NCBI RefSeq assembly: GCF_003790525.1
Contig: NZ_CP033633.1
Source: Escherichia coli
GTDB taxonomy: Bacteria; Pseudomonadota; Gammaproteobacteria; Enterobacterales; Enterobacteriaceae
Strand: one strand, 5' to 3'
Length of the DNA: 64,000 nucleotides
The stretch's first letter is position 1. The number at the start of each line of letters is the position of its first letter. The notes under the pieces were generated by a model, which saw only the letters and a list, made by a program, of their open reading frames with translations, was not told where the DNA came from and ran no database searches. The translations under genes and the position numbers were made by a program. Shown here piece after piece: positions 3,583-17,271 of the stretch.

Positions 3583-4018
3583 ATATCATGCGCCGGGCTG
3601 TGTTATTTTTGCTGAAACCGGCGTTATAGCTGCCCAGGCATTCCCAGTTAACGCCGCAGCGTTGAAAATGGCGGGCCAGTATCCAGGCACCGGTATGAAT
3701 ATTCAGGCAGGGCTTTTTAAGCAGTTCATCCTTGTTTTTAATGACGCCCAGTTTTTTCAGTTCAGGAATATGCACTGAATTAATCTGCATTATTCCGTAA
3801 TCCGTACTGATGATTTTTCCGGATTTGTTTTTATTGTGATTTATCGCAGTGGCGACCAGGCCGCTTTCCTGCTGTGCAATGGTTTTCAGAAGCTCAGGGG
3901 CAATCAGGTAACGTTTTCCGGCCTGAATAAAACAGGAATCGAGATGATTATTATTCATCACAGATGCGATTGATGTGTTACTGAATAAAAGCAGGACAGA
4001 GAGATATAACCATTTCAT
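3542..4018 (-). CDS. pilT: lytic transglycosylase PilT (SLT domain)
   Basis: 158 aa; signal peptide MKWLYLSVLLLFSNTSIASV; SLT-type motifs GIMQIN and YNAGF. Confidence 0.75.
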   Translation of the reverse strand: MKWLYLSVLLLFSNTSIASVMNNNHLDSCFIQAGKRYLIAPELLKTIAQQESGLVATAINHNKNKSGKIISTDYGIMQINSVHIPELKKLGVIKNKDELLKKPCLNIHTGAWILARHFQRCGVNWECLGSYNAGFSKNNTARRMIYARKIHNRYFRQY

Positions 4019-4076
4019 TATGATAATCCCGGCAGTGACAGCATCCTCTGGTATTTAAGGATGCTGTCCGGAAACA

Positions 4077-4613
4077 TTAGCTGTTTGTTTCAAGGGTGAT
4101 GTTATTTTTGTCGTTACTACATACTGTTACGGGATCCACAGTAGCCGGGGCGGTATTCATGATTTTGGTAAACATGGATGAACTGCGCAGGCTGTTAATG
4201 AGTTCCACGCAATTTTCTTTCGGTACATTATTGCTGGTAATCGTATAACCATACTTATCTGCCGTTGCCTTAATGGTGACATCACCGCCCCAGGCATTTT
4301 TGGCCTTGTTACCACCGGCGATCATATCGGCCGGCAGGGAACCACTCTGCGTCAGCGTTTTGATATAATCACTGCTGGTATATTGTCCCTGGAACTTGTA
4401 CTGCTTCATTTTGGTTGCAATGGTCTGCAGGTTTTTCAGTTCGCGCTGGTTATCACTGGATGACATGGTACTGGACATCTGACTTATTGCGAGAGCAACC
4501 ACAATACCGATAATAATCAGTGCGCTGGCAATTTCCAGTAAGGTTAAACCTTTATCCTCCTCTTTCTCTTTTTTTAAAGCAAAATAAGAATAAAGACATG
4601 ATCTGAAGTTCAT
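4077..4613 (-). CDS. pilS: type IV prepilin PilS (major thin-pilus subunit)
   Basis: 178 aa; leader followed by KGLTLLEIASALIIIGIVVALAISQ hydrophobic N-terminal helix. Confidence 0.8.
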   Translation of the reverse strand: MNFRSCLYSYFALKKEKEEDKGLTLLEIASALIIIGIVVALAISQMSSTMSSSDNQRELKNLQTIATKMKQYKFQGQYTSSDYIKTLTQSGSLPADMIAGGNKAKNAWGGDVTIKATADKYGYTITSNNVPKENCVELINSLRSSSMFTKIMNTAPATVDPVTVCSNDKNNITLETNS

Positions 4614-5764: not shown

Positions 5765-7273
5765 TCAGTGCAGCAGCGTATAGCTGTCCTCATCGACGGG
5801 AGATATATAATGGGCCGCCAGCGGATCAACCTGTCCGCTGTTGATTTTTCCCAGCAGATGCTGATTACGGGTCATTCCGCCCAGTTCCCGGTGCCAGTAT
5901 GTTCTGGCCTCAATACGCCCCTTTTCCCGGTACAACTGGAAAAAACGGGCATCCGGGGAGATGACTTCTGCGATCACTGTTCGTCCTGTCACGCCACGCC
6001 AGCAGTGCGGGCAGCCTTCATGATTTCGCAGATATACCTGGTCCGGGTTGCAGACGCTTTCCACCAGGCGCCGTTCATTATCCGTGCGCTCGGTAGCCAC
6101 CTCATGCCAGGGGCGACGGCAGTGCGGACATATCAGCTGAACCAGACGCTGGCTCAGCAGGCCAATGAACAGTTGCGGGTCGGCAATCATCCTGGCCTGT
6201 ACCCCCTCCATCTCAAGACGTTCGAGGATGTTAATCGGGTCGTTCGCATGGATGGTGGTCAGCATCAGATGCCCGGTCATGGCGGCTTTTATTGCCGTAA
6301 TGGCGGAATCGTGGTCACGGATTTCGCCGTTCAGGATCCCGTCAGGGTCAAGACGTAGTGCTGATTTAATGGAGTCCACCCAGCCCTGTGCGGAATCCAT
6401 GACGGCAGTCTGAATGGCACCGGGTATACGGCCCTCTGGCGGGGATTCAATGGTGAACAGCCTGCGACGGGGCAGAAGAATACCGCCGGTATTGTTGAAG
6501 CCGTACTGTTCAAGGTACGCCGCAGAGGCGGTTCTCAGCGTGGTGGATTTTCCTGAACCTGTTGGTCCTGAGAGCGTGATAATACCTTCAGGGCGCTGCA
6601 GAATACGGCGCAGGGTGCGCTCCTGCTCAGGGTGGTAGCCCAGCATGCTGAAGGTCGGGATTTGCAGACTGTCATCCTTGATCAGACGGAGCACAGCATA
6701 GAGGCCGCCCACGCAGGGATAGTGGGAGTAGCGTGCACCAAACAGACCGGCCAGTTTCAGGTACTGCTCTGAAAGACGCGCATCCTGAGGCACCCCGGGA
6801 TCAAACTGTGTGCCCTTGATGACGTCGGTCATGCCGGAATAGGTGGCCCCCAGTAATTCGAGGCCTTCTTCTTTCCGGAGGATATCGAGCACTTCCAGTT
6901 CGCCGTGAACCCGGGCTTCCACATAGGTGAAGTCCGTGTTGTCTCGTCCCGGGGTCATATGAAGGTCTGAGGCACCAAGAGAGGCAGAATGGCGGATATA
7001 GCCGAGCATTTTCTGCTGTACCGGGTTAATGACGCTTTCATCACCGGCGGTTGTGGTGTCCTGTCTGAGGCGGGCTATCACATCCAGGGTGGTGAATTCA
7101 AAGTCTCCCACACGCCCCTGATGACGTGCGCGCAGGCGGGTCAGATATTCCTGGACGGCACGCAGATGTTTTTTTCCCTCCACGACCCTGACCCGCAGAT
7201 GACCGGTTTTATCTGTGTCGATAGCCACATAATCCAGAATGTCATCCGGTGGCAGGTCTGCAGGATCCAACAT
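5765..7273 (-). CDS. pilQ: PilQ, type IV pilus assembly ATPase (GspE/PilB family)
   Basis: 502 aa; Walker A LSGPTGSGKSTTLR; C-terminal CPHC...CPHC zinc-finger-like tetracysteine. Confidence 0.85.
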   Translation of the reverse strand: MLDPADLPPDDILDYVAIDTDKTGHLRVRVVEGKKHLRAVQEYLTRLRARHQGRVGDFEFTTLDVIARLRQDTTTAGDESVINPVQQKMLGYIRHSASLGASDLHMTPGRDNTDFTYVEARVHGELEVLDILRKEEGLELLGATYSGMTDVIKGTQFDPGVPQDARLSEQYLKLAGLFGARYSHYPCVGGLYAVLRLIKDDSLQIPTFSMLGYHPEQERTLRRILQRPEGIITLSGPTGSGKSTTLRTASAAYLEQYGFNNTGGILLPRRRLFTIESPPEGRIPGAIQTAVMDSAQGWVDSIKSALRLDPDGILNGEIRDHDSAITAIKAAMTGHLMLTTIHANDPINILERLEMEGVQARMIADPQLFIGLLSQRLVQLICPHCRRPWHEVATERTDNERRLVESVCNPDQVYLRNHEGCPHCWRGVTGRTVIAEVISPDARFFQLYREKGRIEARTYWHRELGGMTRNQHLLGKINSGQVDPLAAHYISPVDEDSYTLLH

Positions 7274-7369
7274 AAGGCCTCCTTACGGGCAGCGGCGCCC
7301 GGAAAATATGTTTTCTGTTATTAAGCGAGGGAAATAATCAGTTCTTCTGCGGAGAGAATCTGGACATTT

Positions 7370-8044
7370 TCAGCACAGGCTTAACAGTGTAAAAATGATT
7401 ACGCCTCCAAAAGCGAATAACAGGGGAATGTTTTTCTCCGGCTGTGTTGATCTCAGCGTTAATACCGGTGTGGCGAGAGCGTAAAAAATAATACCTGCGG
7501 TATAAATAAAATAAGGTGTGATGCCGGACAGATTACATACACTGGCGAATATCATAAGCATGACGGCAACTACCGATAAAATAATGGAAGTATTCTTCCA
7601 TTCACCAGATGGTGTAAGTGAAATGATATCGCCATCCTGTTTATAGTTCGTGTTCAGCTTCAGGAAATGACGGATATCTTTCAGCGTGTTCAGTTTCTGC
7701 TGGATCTCTTCCACAAGTTCCTGTCTGTCGGTTTTTTCACGGAGCAGCTGGAATTTTGTCTCCCTCAGTACAGATATAATACGGTCCACCTGGCCGGGGG
7801 AGGGATAGTAATGATGTTCGAGCATCCACCGGATATCGGCGATTAACCGGTCAGTTACCGGTGTATTACCGTTGTTAATGAGAGGTGTTTCGTGCATCCA
7901 CTGAAATATGCGGTAGATATGTCGCTTAACAAAAATAAAATCATCGGTGGTTTTATTCTCCAGCATGAGATATATCCCGTCGAGTGTTAATAATAAAACG
8001 TCCCGGGTGTGAGGTGATTTGTGATGTATTGTACGGAATATCAT
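7370..8044 (-). CDS. hypothetical protein with C-terminal transmembrane helices (unassigned, inside pil operon)
   Basis: 224 aa; soluble N-terminal ~150 aa then 2-3 hydrophobic helices; AT-rich relative to flanking pil genes; no recognisable motif. Confidence 0.55.
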   Translation of the reverse strand: MIFRTIHHKSPHTRDVLLLTLDGIYLMLENKTTDDFIFVKRHIYRIFQWMHETPLINNGNTPVTDRLIADIRWMLEHHYYPSPGQVDRIISVLRETKFQLLREKTDRQELVEEIQQKLNTLKDIRHFLKLNTNYKQDGDIISLTPSGEWKNTSIILSVVAVMLMIFASVCNLSGITPYFIYTAGIIFYALATPVLTLRSTQPEKNIPLLFAFGGVIIFTLLSLC

Positions 8045-8175
8045 TTCTGCACTGTAATCGTTTACGCAGGTGATATATCACACCAGAGTAAATACAGCGG
8101 AATGAAGCTGTAGAGTGACCAGAAAAGCCCGACGGGATCTTTTGCCCACAGGCATAAGAATGTCAGTCCGGTGCA

Positions 8176-8616
8176 TCATGCGCCGGCAAGTGCCGCGCAT
8201 AATTCAGCGCCTCCGGAATTGCCGCTCTTCATCATATAACAGAGCGCGATCAGCAGTGGGATAATGAAGACGAGCGGCAGGACAAAGGATTCGGCTGCGG
8301 ATATCCATTCCCGGTAACGCCAGCGGTCGTTTAATCTGTCGGCATCATATTTCAGACAGTTGCTCAGGAACGCCAGATCGTTCATGAGGGGGGCGTCCTG
8401 GCCATACTGCGCCGCGAGGCGCATTCTGGCACCCCACAACCGGGCACTCAGGGCACGGAGTTGTGCCGGGGTGACCTGTTTTCCCCGACAAAGTTGTACC
8501 TGTAATTGTGTTGCCTCGTGGACAATATCTGTGTGGTTCACCCCATATTCTGCAGCGGCTGTTTCCAGGTCACGGATGATCAGGCTGAGCCAGGATATCA
8601 GTTCACTGATGTTCAT
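8176..8616 (-). CDS. hypothetical protein with C-terminal transmembrane helix (unassigned, inside pil operon)
   Basis: 146 aa; soluble N-terminal part then FVLPLVFIIPLLIALCYMM helix; co-directional, between pilP and the 224-aa ORF. Confidence 0.55.
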   Translation of the reverse strand: MNISELISWLSLIIRDLETAAAEYGVNHTDIVHEATQLQVQLCRGKQVTPAQLRALSARLWGARMRLAAQYGQDAPLMNDLAFLSNCLKYDADRLNDRWRYREWISAAESFVLPLVFIIPLLIALCYMMKSGNSGGAELCAALAGA

Positions 8617-8664
8617 TGTCGTTCATCCTTTTGTACGGACAGCCGCCTGTACTGGCGGCCGGTT

Positions 8665-9117
8665 TCATGGTCGCAGGGTTTTTCTGATGCCGGACTGCTC
8701 CAGTACCACACTGTCCGGTGTGATTTTCTCCACGAGATAAGGGGTTCCGGGGATGTTCTGGCCCGTCTTCACATCGGTGATGTGTCCACCCGAAAGTTCT
8801 ATCCGGGCTCTCAGCTGAGGCTGTACACCAAATATTTCTGTCAGACGGGGGGATGTCGCCGTCGACGGGGCAGTCGGGATGGCGGACGTGCTTTCCTGCG
8901 GACGACCGGGCTCTGCGGGAATACCCTGCTCCAGCATGCGCAGTTCATGACGGATTTTCTCTCTCGCCAGCATGGCTTCATACAGGGCTGTTTCGTCCTG
9001 TATCCGCTCAATCTGCAGTTGCCGGGGACTCTGTTCCTCTGCGTTTCCGGTTGTGGCCATTGCCGTTGCCGGTAACAGCAGCGCTGAAACCAGAAGGGCT
9101 TTTGTTTTAGCGTGCAT
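8665..9117 (-). CDS. pilP: PilP, periplasmic pilus assembly protein
   Basis: 150 aa; signal peptide MHAKTKALLVSALLLPATAMA; overlaps pilO stop; operon position. Confidence 0.65.
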   Translation of the reverse strand: MHAKTKALLVSALLLPATAMATTGNAEEQSPRQLQIERIQDETALYEAMLAREKIRHELRMLEQGIPAEPGRPQESTSAIPTAPSTATSPRLTEIFGVQPQLRARIELSGGHITDVKTGQNIPGTPYLVEKITPDSVVLEQSGIRKTLRP

Positions 9118-10402
9118 AATATTTACCTGTAAATTGATAGTGGAAACGACCGTTCTCCAGTTGTCGTGTGACAGAGATAAAACGGACAGAAGGCGCCTTC
9201 AGACGTTCAACCAGCTGGTATGCCGGGAGTAGCGTCTGTATCTGAAGGTCATACTCTTTCCACGGAGGCTGGATAATATTTCCGTTTTCATCGGTGACGC
9301 TGTTACTGACCTCCTGCCAGTCCAGCGTCAGTGGCATTGACTGAGCAAGCGTGGTCAGTTGTTCTTGCAGGACAGAGCTTTCCGGCAGAGCATCAACGTC
9401 GACGGGATGTTCAGGCAGGCGGAAGCTGACTGGCAGGCCAATGCCGCCGGTCTTTCCTTCCGGCATCACAATAAAGGGGCGGGTACCCGTCATATCACTG
9501 ATGCGCCGGATGAAGTCAGTCACTGTCGCGCCAGCTGTATTAGTGTACGAGGCGCGAAGATTGCCGCTGCCGCCGTCAGTTGAACATTCAGCCAGCGAAT
9601 AACGCCATCCGGAGGCAGACAGTGGCAGTGACGTCCATATGTCAGCACATCCCTGGATAAAGGCGTCGGTTTCGGGGAGTCCGGGCCAGGGGGGACTGAT
9701 TTGTTCCTCTGTGACCTGTCGGGCAGCTGCTGCCTGCGCGGCTTGTTCAGTCTTCCACCGTTCATAATACTGCCAGCCGTACCATGCAGCGCCGAGAAGG
9801 GCGATGATCAGCGAGACAGTGATGAACTGCGCTCCCCGGGATACCGGATTCAGGCGCGCGGCAGCCGGATGTTTACCAGAGCCGGTCAGGGTGGACAGCG
9901 GCAGGGCCTGATTCTGATCGCCTGCTGAAAATGCCACCGGTTCATAGCGTGTCCAGCCCTGCTCCGGTTCGGTGTTGATGGAAAGAAAGGTATCCCGGGC
10001 TTCACGGACCTCTTCTCCGCTTCCCACCAGGTCACTGACGAGAACACCGTCGACAGCGGAAACAAAGCTGTAGCGCGGTGTTTCTCCGGGTAACGTCAGT
10101 TCCGTGATGGCATAGCCGCCATGTTCAAGCAGTGGCAGGATCAGCAGGGCGAGGGAGAAGCACTGACGGGGTTTTCCGGGCAGTATGCGGCGACTGACAG
10201 TGGCTACCATGGTGTGGGTATCGGCATCTTCATTACTGAGATACTGACAGGCCAGGAAAAGGTCGGCTTTCTGTGCCCGGGCAAAGTCGCGGGCATGCCG
10301 GTACTGTGAGGGCAGTGTTTTCCATTCCAGCCCGGCCAGAAACACATTGCGCCCTGCCGGCAGCGGAAACACCTGCCGCTCTGTCGGTGAAATATCCGTC
10401 AC
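9107..10402 (-). CDS. pilO: PilO, pilus assembly protein
   Basis: 431 aa; internal TM segment FITVSLIIALLGAAWYGW; operon position between pilN and pilP. Confidence 0.65.
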   Translation of the reverse strand: MTDISPTERQVFPLPAGRNVFLAGLEWKTLPSQYRHARDFARAQKADLFLACQYLSNEDADTHTMVATVSRRILPGKPRQCFSLALLILPLLEHGGYAITELTLPGETPRYSFVSAVDGVLVSDLVGSGEEVREARDTFLSINTEPEQGWTRYEPVAFSAGDQNQALPLSTLTGSGKHPAAARLNPVSRGAQFITVSLIIALLGAAWYGWQYYERWKTEQAAQAAAARQVTEEQISPPWPGLPETDAFIQGCADIWTSLPLSASGWRYSLAECSTDGGSGNLRASYTNTAGATVTDFIRRISDMTGTRPFIVMPEGKTGGIGLPVSFRLPEHPVDVDALPESSVLQEQLTTLAQSMPLTLDWQEVSNSVTDENGNIIQPPWKEYDLQIQTLLPAYQLVERLKAPSVRFISVTRQLENGRFHYQFTGKYYAR

Positions 10403-13585: not shown

Positions 13586-13706
13586 AGAATATAATCCGGT
13601 ATATTACGGGTTACGGTATAAGACAGGTGGCGGGTAACTGGCCTTCAGATGAATATCATTTCATCGGGTTATTGATGATGAACCTTAAAAATCACAGAGG
13701 TGATGC

Positions 13707-14102
13707 ATGATAAAGAAGATGTGGCGTTATTTACGGCAAATTGATAAGTATGAATTGCTGCAGCAGGTGATTTCAGTACATGAAGTGGAACTGCTCAGGA
13801 AAATGATGACAGATTCATTATTAGGGTGCTCAGTAGGATATGTGTTTTCGAAAATACTGAAGATATTCTTTCTGCGTTTTATTCAGTCTGAGGGGGGATG
13901 GGATATTATTACTTACTTTTTGTGGATGCTGGGAATACTTATTGTCATGGCCGCGCTGTTTATCTGGATGTGCGCCGCTGTATGCTATGAGCTTCGGATG
14001 TATAAAATAAAAACAGGAAGGGAGAACGATATATTATTCTGGGTGTGGATTCTTCTTTTTGATGTCGCGGTTGTATTTTCGCTGGGTAATGTTATCTGGT
14101 GA
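13707..14102 (+). CDS. hypothetical small membrane protein (AT-rich)
   Basis: 131 aa; at least two hydrophobic helices; plus strand, opposite to surrounding genes; abuts ORF 14103-14534. Confidence 0.4.
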   Translation: MIKKMWRYLRQIDKYELLQQVISVHEVELLRKMMTDSLLGCSVGYVFSKILKIFFLRFIQSEGGWDIITYFLWMLGILIVMAALFIWMCAAVCYELRMYKIKTGRENDILFWVWILLFDVAVVFSLGNVIW

Positions 14103-14534
14103 TTATGGGTTCAGTGACATATGGAAAAAGATAAGTGCGAACATTGATACTGAAGAATAATATATCCAGGAATAGAAAAACATGAATTTCGGAGATGGTT
14201 TCTTCTGTCTCCTGTTTTTCAGGGGAGTCTGTGGGTCAAATGTTATCAGCGTCATTAAAGGATACCCTTTCATAAGAATAAAAATATAGACGCATAAATG
14301 AGCGTAAAGAGGTAACCTGTCCTGCCAGAACAGAATCATCATGATGACGGCAAGATGAAATGTCGTTACATTGATATAATAAAACCAGCTGTATTTACGC
14401 AGATACTGTTGGATATTCACGCTGTCAGCATGCGGTTCTGGTGAACAATTTATGCAAAAACAGAAGAAAGAAATGATGATGAACACGGTCAGAGTGACCG
14501 GTAATACAGTCACAAGCAGAAAGAGTATGGACAT
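14103..14534 (-). CDS. hypothetical polytopic membrane protein (AT-rich)
   Basis: 143 aa; 3-4 hydrophobic helices; convergent with 13707-14102. Confidence 0.4.
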   Translation of the reverse strand: MSILFLLVTVLPVTLTVFIIISFFCFCINCSPEPHADSVNIQQYLRKYSWFYYINVTTFHLAVIMMILFWQDRLPLYAHLCVYIFILMKGYPLMTLITFDPQTPLKNRRQKKPSPKFMFFYSWIYYSSVSMFALIFFHMSLNP

Positions 14535-14606
14535 AAAAATATCTCCGTCAGGATAGTGTGATTATTCCTTTATGGTTCCATAACCCGGCGTAGCTCCGTC
14601 GACTGG

Positions 14607-14929: not shown

Positions 14930-16624
14930 TTAAACCTGTTGTGGTTCTGAGTTATCCGGAGTGGTTACCGGTTCGCTGACATCCGGAACCTTTTCCGGGG
15001 CAGGCATGACCAGTGGACGTGTCAGGGCTGTAAGTCCTTCACCGGATAAACCCACCTCTTTCAGCAGGGAGTCGATGAGCGGAGCCTGTGTACGGTAAGC
15101 CAGAGCGGCGGTTACTGCCTGTTCAGCGAGATTTCCGCCACTTATGTCGGTTGTTGCTGTTTTACCGCGGGTAACACCGCCATTCAGACCATCCACCTGA
15201 ATGATTTTAATACCGTCAATGGATTTCATTGGTTCTGTGGACTTCTCTATGACGGCAGGTAATGCATCCAGCAGGGCAAGACGGAAGCGGAGGCTGGTCT
15301 GCTCATCCGAAAGCACGTTAATGGCATCGTTCAGTGCGCGCTGTGCTTCTGCTTCTGCCAGACCTTTCTGACGGGTGGCCTCCGCCAGTTCAATAATTGC
15401 TGCTGCCTGGAGTTCGGCTGCTTCTTTTTCAGCCTGTGCGCGAACCGTCAGTTCAACCGCTTTCGTTTCAGCTTCCTGAGCAGCAGCAATCAGGGCAACC
15501 TGTTTGGTACGGCCGGCCTCTGCAGTCTGGCGGGTGGTTTCCACATCCTGCTGGGCCTGTACGGCCTCAGCCAGTGCTTTACTTGCCCGGGCTTCTGCCT
15601 GTGACTGCTCTTCCGATTTTGCCGCCACGGCAATGGCTCTGGCCTGGCTGGCGATTTCGGTTGCCTGCTGTTGTTCAATTTCCCGTATGGCCACTTCCCG
15701 TTCGGCTTCGACCTGGCGGGTACGCACTATCTGCTGTCGTTCGATTTCGGCTTCCTCTATCTTACGTTCAGCCAGAATTCGCGCGGATTCTGCTTCACGA
15801 CGTCGTTCAGCTTCAATAGCAGCAATACTGGCACTCTGCTCTGCCGTACGGGTTTTTACCCGTTGTTGTTGCTCCAGAGTCATGAAGGCTTCCTGCTGTT
15901 CAATCTCCAGACGTCGGGAGAGTGCATCCCGGTTTTTTTCCCTGATGGCCACTTCAACATCCTGCTCAACTTCGTTGCGTTCGCGGCGACGACGTTCTGT
16001 TTCCTGGGTCAGAAGGGTCAGGCCTTCAGCATCAAAGGCATTGTCAGGATTAAAATGTACCCGTGCAGTCTGGTTGAAACTTGTCAGCGACACACTTTCA
16101 AGCTCCAGACCGTTTTTGGATAAGTCTTCCGCAACGGTGTTCTGCACACCCTGAACAAAGTTCTCGCGGGCATCCTGTAAATCCTGCATGCTCATTCTGG
16201 CCGCCGTGGCCCGTAGGGCATCAACAAATTTATCCTCGACCAGACTACGCAGATCTTCAGGTGTGAGCGTGCGTTGTCCCAGCGTCTGGGCTGCAGTGGA
16301 TATTCCTTCGGCTGATGGTTTTACCCGAAGAAAAAAGGCAACGGCAACATCAACACGCATGCGGTCGCGGGTTATGAGACTTTCAGCCGCTGCACGACTG
16401 ACTTCCAGCTTCAGGGTGTTCATGTTGACGGGAATTGTTTCGTGAAAAATGGGCATAACAATTGCACCGCCACTCATTACCACTTTTTGGCCTCCCAGAC
16501 CTGTGCGGACAAAGGCCTGCTCTGCCGATGCCCGGCGGTACAGGCGGGCAAATATCAGCCCGATAACGAACAGGGTGAGGACCAGCGCTATAACGGTAAA
16601 CAACCATCCCGGAAGATTAAACAT
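14930..16624 (-). CDS. SPFH/band-7 (flotillin-like, YqiK-like) membrane protein
   Basis: 564 aa; N-terminal TM helix, SPFH-like region, then long Glu/Ala/Arg/Gln-rich coiled-coil; size and layout match E. coli YqiK. Confidence 0.75.
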   Translation of the reverse strand: MFNLPGWLFTVIALVLTLFVIGLIFARLYRRASAEQAFVRTGLGGQKVVMSGGAIVMPIFHETIPVNMNTLKLEVSRAAAESLITRDRMRVDVAVAFFLRVKPSAEGISTAAQTLGQRTLTPEDLRSLVEDKFVDALRATAARMSMQDLQDARENFVQGVQNTVAEDLSKNGLELESVSLTSFNQTARVHFNPDNAFDAEGLTLLTQETERRRRERNEVEQDVEVAIREKNRDALSRRLEIEQQEAFMTLEQQQRVKTRTAEQSASIAAIEAERRREAESARILAERKIEEAEIERQQIVRTRQVEAEREVAIREIEQQQATEIASQARAIAVAAKSEEQSQAEARASKALAEAVQAQQDVETTRQTAEAGRTKQVALIAAAQEAETKAVELTVRAQAEKEAAELQAAAIIELAEATRQKGLAEAEAQRALNDAINVLSDEQTSLRFRLALLDALPAVIEKSTEPMKSIDGIKIIQVDGLNGGVTRGKTATTDISGGNLAEQAVTAALAYRTQAPLIDSLLKEVGLSGEGLTALTRPLVMPAPEKVPDVSEPVTTPDNSEPQQV

Positions 16625-16650
16625 AGTGAGAACCTCTGTATATGTCGGGA

Positions 16651-17271
16651 TTAAAGAACATCCGGCCAGGGATTCAGTTCGCCCAGCCAGCGGGAACCGG
16701 AAAGACGGCAGACAATAATCACTTTGTCTCCTCGTCTGAATTCTTTCCCGGCCTCCGGCTCCAGCAACAGGTAATGAACCTGCCCGAAGCGGTCTGTGAA
16801 GCGACCTTCACAGGGGGAACCCGCCACTGCGTGATAACCGGTGATGGTGGCCATACAGCCGATGAATGCCTCCTCGGTGAGCGCCGTTGTTTCATCACGG
16901 GGTAACCAGGGGGCAATCAGTCTGCCGGTGCGGTGTACGAGAGGACATGTCAGCAGCAGGCAAAGTGGTGTAAGGAGAATGTTCGGGGCAGGAGCCTGCA
17001 GCAGATGAATAATAAGACCCTGCAGGAGAATGCCGGATATACCAAAAAAACCTGCCAGCATACAGAGGACGATCAGCAGGGGGATCCGTCCGATGTTCAG
17101 CCAGTCCAGCGCCTCTCCTGTCAGCCCCTCCGGTAAATCAGGTGTATCCATAGCTGAAGAGAGGGAGTGTCCGCAGAGCAGGGCGATAAGTTCAGCGATA
17201 CCAGTAAGCAGAACAAAAGTCAGGGCTGCCAGATAGGGTGCGTTATACGCGGTAAGTAACGCCAGTGTCAT
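16651..17271 (-). CDS. NfeD-like (YqiJ-like) membrane protein, partner of the SPFH protein
   Basis: 206 aa; N-terminal hydrophobic helices and C-terminal soluble domain; immediately upstream of the SPFH gene as in yqiJ-yqiK. Confidence 0.7.
   Translation of the reverse strand: MTLALLTAYNAPYLAALTFVLLTGIAELIALLCGHSLSSAMDTPDLPEGLTGEALDWLNIGRIPLLIVLCMLAGFFGISGILLQGLIIHLLQAPAPNILLTPLCLLLTCPLVHRTGRLIAPWLPRDETTALTEEAFIGCMATITGYHAVAGSPCEGRFTDRFGQVHYLLLEPEAGKEFRRGDKVIIVCRLSGSRWLGELNPWPDVL

Follow-up and report, generated by a model that had tools for sequence, protein, structure and literature searches.

A putative portable module of paralogous membrane-protein genes at the pilP–pilQ junction of an IncK2/Z-type plasmid and in other conjugation operons

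We here analysed the junction between the thin-pilus genes pilP and pilQ in a stretch of 64,000 nucleotides (nt) of Escherichia coli DNA (contig NZ_CP033633.1 of assembly GCF_003790525.1, referred to as the window), which matches IncK2/Z-type conjugative plasmids of this species. An earlier note, made from the letters alone, had described two open reading frames (ORFs) wedged into this junction, and both were found there, co-directional on the minus strand: ORF1 at 8616–8176 (146 amino acids, aa) and ORF2 in a frame open from 8044 to 7370 (224 aa). The upstream neighbour and last pil gene before this cassette is pilP (8665–9117, minus strand, 150 aa), recognised from the ORF list, its translation and the PilP annotation of identical plasmids, while the downstream neighbour pilQ (5765–7273, minus strand, 502 aa) encodes a GspE/PulE-type ATPase. 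pilP and ORF1 are separated by a leader (8617–8664, minus strand) in which we read a G+C-rich hairpin (GCCGCC-agtaca-GGCGGC, about 8661–8640) and the ribosome-binding region of ORF1 (AAGGATGA). Behind ORF2 follow, on the same strand, a cassette 3′ tail (7315–7369), which is not present at the empty site of the related plasmid pSTEC636_2, and a pilQ leader with ribosome-binding site (7274–7314; TAAGGAGG) that is common to filled and empty sites. The 2-kb stretch 7200–9200 is 100% identical to six E. coli records, including pLH10-b-1-A, and 99.8% identical to the IncK2 plasmid pTMSA1088, with four base differences.

One of these four differences alters the gene model of ORF1. The base at position 8176 is A in the window and G in pTMSA1088, which converts TGG (Trp147) into TGA, so that base-by-base comparison identifies the codon at 8176–8178 (minus strand) as a premature stop and the 146-aa ORF as an allele whose product, a membrane protein of 184 aa at full length, is truncated. 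In pTMSA1088 the annotated product is the 184-aa form, of which the two largest full-length protein clusters (53 and 213 member sequences) also consist, and pLH10-b-1-A is annotated with the 146-aa allele; truncated protein clusters of 107–110 aa exist as well. The window allele retains the N-terminal four-helix domain, a strong transmembrane (TM) helix at residues 111–129 and half of the next helix, while the 3′ part of the gene (8062–8175, minus strand), which encodes the best-conserved segment of the family (LWAKDPVGLFWSLYSFIPLY), is left untranslated. For ORF2, the Prokaryotic Genome Annotation Pipeline (PGAP) and all homologues place the start at the ATG at 7966, and the 26 extra codons of the longer frame have no counterpart elsewhere; the true product is therefore most likely the 198-aa protein encoded at 7370–7966 (minus strand). 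With these corrections the original observation is confirmed, and both ORFs are real genes and not chance ORFs, while the interpretation attached to them is only partly supported by what follows. The remark that ORF2 is AT-rich beside the flanking pil genes holds for pilP and pilQ (G+C content 0.43 against 0.57), with ORF1 at 0.55; it does not hold as a contrast with pil genes in general, since pilS and pilT likewise have a G+C content of 0.43.

Both products consist of a helical N-terminal domain of about 100–125 aa without a catalytic-looking motif, followed by one to three TM helices. Hydropathy analysis yielded three C-terminal TM helices for ORF2 (128–146, 153–171 and 180–198) and, for full-length ORF1, the strong helix 111–129 plus two weaker hydrophobic helices. 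AlphaFold models (predicted local distance difference test, pLDDT, 73 for ORF1 and 71 for ORF2, with 80–92 in the N-domain of ORF2) show an N-terminal helical bundle and then hydrophobic helices in both proteins; the helical N-domain of ORF2 carries the motif YPSPGQV...LRETKF..LRE, and a short beta-hairpin precedes its TM helices. An N-terminus-inside topology with a cytoplasmic N-domain is predicted, which hydropathy and loop charges fit. The earlier description of both as tail-anchored was right in its C-terminal hydrophobic helices; a single TM helix at the extreme C-terminus is found neither in window ORF2 nor in full-length ORF1, and the only form with this architecture is a 148-aa version of ORF2 in some F-type plasmids. 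The two proteins are distant paralogues and not unrelated partners, as profile comparisons show: hhalign aligned the two families over 131 columns with a probability of 90% (E = 1.5e-6), and each profile matched members of the other family (E = 1e-7 and 1.6e-5). Both families are small and restricted to Enterobacterales, with 36 clusters among 5.8 billion proteins for ORF1 and 33 representatives among 1.84 billion proteins for ORF2.

Homologues of the two genes were found in conjugation operons of three types. In E. coli chromosomes, an island resembling an integrative and conjugative element, with a TraI_2 relaxase, an integrase and pilL–V, carries a homologous cassette at its pilO/pilP junction, in the order pilO, truncated pilP′, ORF1 homologue (66% identity), a gene on the opposite strand, ORF2 homologue (76–78%), full pilP and pilQ; its ORF1 homologue is indexed in about 200 collection blocks. 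In F-type plasmids of Salmonella, E. coli and Klebsiella, module genes lie between traU and trbC, with a divergent trio of genes at this junction in 55 Klebsiella-group plasmids, while in F itself traU and trbC are spaced by 8 nt and no module is present. In I-type (Dot/Icm-like) tra operons, ORF2-type genes occur between traR and traT and also between traK and the LPD7 gene, and the full trio lies just upstream of traH; R64 is empty at the corresponding junctions. The G+C content of the module is alike in every context (0.50–0.55 for the ORF1 type, 0.42–0.44 for the ORF2 type and 0.36–0.41 for the third gene, with flanking genes at 0.53–0.58), and the reading frames are preserved down to about 30–40% amino-acid identity across several genera. 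A 148-aa form of ORF2 that ends after the first TM helix (L011 6220–6666, L030 1961–2404 and L031 1961–2404) is conserved in F-type plasmids of E. coli and Salmonella, indicating that the last two helices are dispensable in some lineages. Together, these loci show a previously undescribed portable module of conjugation operons that is independent of the type of mating machine, and they make a thin-pilus-specific role unlikely, since the same genes reside in F-type and I-type operons for type IV secretion systems (T4SS). As a separate observation, the Salmonella plasmid pAUSMDU00010532_01 (L013) has an HNH endonuclease gene (7826–8245) between trbC and traN, beside the cassette junction, a further sign that junctions of tra operons gather selfish or accessory genes.

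The usual companion of the ORF1/ORF2-type pair at these other loci is the opposite-strand gene, which encodes a protein of 224–296 aa with N-terminal TM helices and a basic C-terminal domain bearing an LN(L/F)RYGG(K/R)TR motif, with LN.(R/K/W)YGG.TR as the invariant pattern. This AT-rich third gene stands head-to-head with an ORF2-type gene at every locus where it is present. Between the closely related Klebsiella plasmids L012 and L014 the difference is a clean stretch of 724 bp that holds the third gene and no other. At the loci examined an ORF2 homologue was present wherever the third gene was found, while other loci have an ORF2 homologue and no third gene. The window, too, lacks the third gene, and tblastn for a remnant of it between ORF1 and ORF2 gave chance-level matches only. 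Because the third gene is missing and ORF1 carries a nonsense allele, the window copy is a reduced one, with ORF2 as its sole intact member. Neither ORF1, ORF2, the third gene nor their divergent members gave a significant match in Pfam, NCBIfam, PADLOC, PHROGs or PDB sequences, in line with the first impression that no motif could be recognised; Foldseek against AFDB50 returned only uncharacterised Enterobacterales proteins, and in a literature search no paper named or discussed these ORFs. Searching a small ORF set gave a weak similarity (E = 1e-3), around a shared SHLL motif, between the third-gene family and R64 'TraD' (L022 13350–13916), a 188-aa protein encoded upstream of the pil operon and similar in layout, with N-terminal hydrophobic helices and a C-terminal domain containing this motif.

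We next consider how the cassette came to lie between pilP and pilQ. In R64, pilQ directly follows pilP, as the earlier note stated, the gap there being 10 nt, and comparison with further relatives bears out the insertion: pCT (IncK1) has 102 nt without an ORF and pSTEC636_2 has 84 nt. The cassette is carried by only 110 of 461 related plasmids, while in nearly all of the others, about 350 plasmids, the two matches to the pil flanks directly adjoin each other. Relative to the empty site of pSTEC636_2, the extra DNA extends over 8616–7315 and begins at the ATG of ORF1, with microhomology of ACA only at its ends. Neither terminal repeats nor target duplications beyond chance-level short matches were detected at 8616 and 7315, and the cassette contains no recombinase gene, so that it does not have the make-up of an autonomous mobile element. 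The hairpin behind pilP recurs at two empty sites, those of pSTEC636_2 and pCT, and in the island, where it precedes the ORF1 homologue. The two empty sites bear different scars, since in pSTEC636_2 the hairpin and the ORF1 leader, ribosome-binding site included, remain and the cassette 3′ tail is lost, while pCT has kept the hairpin and about 40 nt of tail homology and lost the ORF1 leader. In pB16EC0630-3 (L002, CP088788.1) a remnant comprising the first 72 or so codons of ORF1 has diverged to 84% identity, against about 86% in the upstream pil flank, and about 40 nt of the cassette tail remain, while an opposite-strand relE/parE pair (3589–4368) replaces the interior; this plasmid is mosaic here, resembling pSTEC636_2 upstream (94%) and the window downstream (95%), and the same remnant was found in three further plasmids. 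Since relatives keep different cassette-end fragments or a diverged ORF1 remnant, the simplest reading would be that the K/Z branch of the I-complex acquired the cassette once, long ago, and that deletions and replacements then took place independently, with R64 and its 10-nt gap never having had the cassette. Of the proposal that the genes were acquired later than their surroundings, inserted cargo is thus retained, while a recent gain by IncK2 is not. The island copy, with its truncated pilP′, the same hairpin and leader (the latter with a 21-nt tandem duplication) and a pilQ leader, would derive from a plasmid-type arrangement of pilP, cassette and pilQ. The two copies of this 21-nt duplication (AAAGGATGAACGACAATGAAC) lie just upstream of the ORF1 homologue (L006 9950–10000), with a 34-codon duplicate of the 5′ end of pilP upstream of them. 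In NZ_CP104082.1 (79620–82963), a near-identical plasmid, an ISVsa5 insertion sequence (IS4-like) was observed within the stretch from pilP through the cassette to the start of pilQ.

Selection and expression were assessed next. Ratios of nonsynonymous to synonymous substitution rates (dN/dS, Nei–Gojobori) between diverged copies were 0.17–0.29 for ORF2, 0.44–0.63 for ORF1 and 0.22 for the third gene, compared with 0.15–0.28 for pilO, pilP and pilQ, which points to purifying selection on all three module genes. Between pilP and pilQ no terminator was detected except for weak matches inside the ORFs, and promoter and terminator scans of the window and the island copy did not rise above shuffled expectation. 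The genes are therefore presumably transcribed with the pil operon, and the earlier suggestion of foreign cargo positioned to ride on the pil transcript is supported. In broth, conjugation of IncK2 plasmids is at least as good as that of IncK1 plasmids (PMC6803427), which implies that the insertion is not polar on pilQ–V. Close relatives without the cassette keep otherwise complete pil operons, and the genes thus appear to be accessory cargo, dispensable to the pilus operon.

RfaH is required by the F tra operon, and plasmids of the I-complex encode a NusG paralogue of their own, annotated upstream of the pil region. This reliance on RfaH or a NusG paralogue may explain how AT-rich cargo is tolerated and expressed in long operons. 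We propose a model in which the module genes would be made only when the mating apparatus is made, by operon read-through, and in which the paralogues would form a hetero-oligomeric inner-membrane complex with cytoplasmic helical domains, joined by the third protein where present. Such a complex would not be aimed at a particular pilus or T4SS part; it would act on something that every host shares, be it the envelope or an invading phage or plasmid, and a protective or immunity-type membrane module would be its likeliest logic. Within the module, the part of an indispensable, immunity-like partner to the opposite-strand protein would fall to the ORF2-type protein, which would persist as an orphan after loss of the third gene, a role favoured by the pattern at the loci examined, where ORF2-type genes persist without the third gene and the reverse was unseen. 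Our best guess for the role is accordingly broad, namely of an immunity, exclusion or toxin/immunity type. As a whole, a protective or immunity-type inner-membrane complex encoded by a portable cargo module is the explanation we favour, and we place it just on the probable side. That all three genes constitute a mating-coupled device (toxin/immunity, exclusion or phage barrier) which moves among cargo-tolerant junctions of conjugation operons with unrelated mechanisms (type IVb pilus, F-type T4SS and I-type T4SS) and is expressed by read-through is a more specific proposal, put forward tentatively.

Several points weigh against this model. The pattern linking the third gene to ORF2 comes from about a dozen loci, several of which were found through ORF2 itself. 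Fold searches led only to generic helical bundles or uncharacterised relatives, and no library search returned an annotated homologue pointing to a function; complex formation, topology and co-transcription are predictions. Truncated forms are frequent, among them the window ORF1, the 107-aa clusters and the frameshifted third gene of L011, and constraint on ORF1 is relaxed, as would also be expected of a module that can often be dispensed with or is in decay. The 148-aa form of ORF2 in turn suggests that truncation need not inactivate, so that calling the window allele of ORF1 inactive is uncertain.

Four other explanations were weighed against the protective membrane complex. In the first, the genes would form a mating-coupled barrier, either protecting piliated donors from pilus-specific phages or acting in exclusion or fertility inhibition against competing plasmids. 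The module occurs only in conjugation operons, and since these are of three mechanistic types, the benefit would have to be general to cells expressing a mating apparatus; its patchy distribution and frequent loss resemble those of defence and competition genes, and small, poorly conserved, non-essential inner-membrane proteins of transfer operons are typical of exclusion functions, as exemplified by F TraS and IncI ExcA. However, no PADLOC model matched any of the three proteins at E values up to 1, the ORF1 and ORF2 profiles found no similarity to F TraS, F TraT or R64 ExcA in an ORF set that contained all of them, and the host plasmids already have exclusion genes of their own, such as excA. 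We therefore regard a barrier of this kind as unlikely. An identification of ORF2 with the TraS of IncI plasmids was rejected, R64 TraS being an unrelated protein of 62 aa.

A toxin/immunity or addiction module, in which the third protein would be a membrane toxin, the ORF2-type protein (with ORF1) its antidote and the window genes orphan immunity genes, appears improbable to us. It would account for the head-to-head arrangement of ORF2-type and third genes at at least five different junctions, for the one-sided persistence of ORF2-type genes after third-gene loss and for the foreign, AT-rich composition that the two genes share, and a bona fide relE/parE module does occupy the same junction in pB16EC0630-3. 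Against it, Pfam, NCBIfam and PADLOC revealed no toxin or antitoxin family similar to any of the three proteins, known toxin–antitoxin types do not typically have divergent genes or proteins of about 200 aa, the loci are few and the way in which they were found biases the sample in part, and in the F-type plasmids L030 and L031 the only ORF2 partner of an intact third gene is the short, single-helix form.

Less probable again is functionless hitch-hiking DNA in slow decay, tolerated where the junctions of long operons protected by antitermination are permissive. The nonsense allele of the window, the truncated clusters of 107–110 aa, the frameshift in L011, the IS insertion in NZ_CP104082, the independent deletions in pCT and pSTEC636_2 and a dN/dS of up to 0.63 for ORF1 would all be expected from such decay. 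It fits poorly, however, with reading frames kept open at about 30–40% amino-acid identity in several genera, with dN/dS well below 1 for ORF2 and the third gene, with the conservation of motifs, and with retention of the gene pair across several independent junctions. Finally, we consider it hardly credible that ORF1 and ORF2 are ordinary genes of thin-pilus biogenesis, such as R64 pilJ/pilK moved to a new position, as their shared orientation within the pil operon, their sizes of 184 and 198 aa with a predicted inner-membrane location recalling R64 PilK (196 aa) and the lack of annotated pilJ/pilK upstream of pilL in IncK2 might suggest, because the best hit of both profiles among the R64 pil and tra ORFs had an E value of about 0.8 (hmmsearch --max against all ORFs of at least 40 aa in these regions, with the F tra region including traS and traT searched as well, where nothing resembled ORF1 or ORF2 either), the junction is empty in R64, pCT and pSTEC636_2, T4SS operons of the F and I types, which have no type IV pilus role, carry the same genes, and ORF1 is truncated in the window. 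A direct substitution for pilJ/pilK was likewise rejected, as homology is lacking and pSTEC636_2 does without both the cassette and pilJ/pilK.

The transfer operons of IncK2 and Klebsiella IncFII-type plasmids are usually assumed to hold transfer genes only. While the module itself is undescribed, the category to which it belongs, non-essential membrane-protein cargo in transfer operons, is familiar. The closest parallels are trbA, trbD, trbE, trbH, trbJ and trbF of the F tra operon, which likewise encode small, mostly inner-membrane proteins of no assigned role and are embedded in a conjugation operon and transcribed along with it, and artA next to trbA, which like the third gene of the module lies on the strand opposite to the operon. 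In contrast to these, the module proteins are larger (180–230 aa), show no sequence similarity to any F tra ORF and span thin-pilus, F-type and I-type operons instead of a single type. Small non-essential F tra genes are also patchily distributed among relatives (PMC5102898). Foreign cargo at junctions, partly on the opposite strand, is further represented by vapBC between traD and traI in F and by relE/parE between pilP and pilQ in pB16EC0630-3; these are, however, recognisable type II families of small soluble proteins, while the module encodes membrane proteins without a family match. F TraS and IncI1 ExcA share with the module proteins a poorly conserved inner-membrane character, a location in transfer regions and dispensability for transfer, but they have no homology to them, normally occur once per element and are specific for the cognate T4SS, whereas the module crosses T4SS types and coexists with excA. 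With R64 pilI–pilV, studied by Yoshida et al. (1999) and Sakai and Komano (2002) as cited in PMC10286972, the module shares its position and orientation in the pilL–pilV operon and a predicted inner-membrane location like that of PilK, PilM and PilR; it is nevertheless absent from R64 and most relatives and resembles none of the 14 R64 pil products.

A conserved, unnamed membrane-protein module rides in the transfer operons of about 200 sequenced plasmids and in E. coli chromosomal islands, at no fewer than seven different junctions. The IncK2 plasmids with blaCMY-2 from poultry and the IncFII-type plasmids of Klebsiella both count among the important carriers of antibiotic resistance. An effect of the module on the fitness of donors, on phage sensitivity, on exclusion or on envelope stress would make it a new accessory layer of conjugation biology, and also one concrete genetic difference between IncK2 and IncK1. 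Cells carrying IncK2 have been reported to show raised sigma-32 levels only with a conjugation-proficient plasmid (PMC6803427). Should the module be functionless, it would still mark the junctions of transfer operons that tolerate cargo.

The remaining pil genes of the window surround the cassette in the same orientation. Upstream of pilP lie, all on the minus strand, pilL (13585–12515), pilM (12510–12073), pilN (12042–10423) and pilO (10402–9107), and pilR to pilV follow downstream of pilQ, likewise on the minus strand. Upstream of pilL, a very AT-rich region at 13600–14600 (G+C content 0.37–0.41) contains a plus-strand ORF of 131 aa and a minus-strand membrane-protein ORF of 143 aa; this region differs among relatives, with a 295-aa ORF in pSTEC636_2 and pilJ/pilK in R64. 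Between traC and the pil operon, at 14930–17271 on the minus strand, the window further carries a flotillin-family gene (564 aa) and a gene for an NfeD/OB-fold membrane protein (about 205 aa), a pair that is also found in pSTEC636_2, is absent from the IncK2 plasmid pTMSA1088 and represents a second membrane-organising cargo adjoining the pilus genes.

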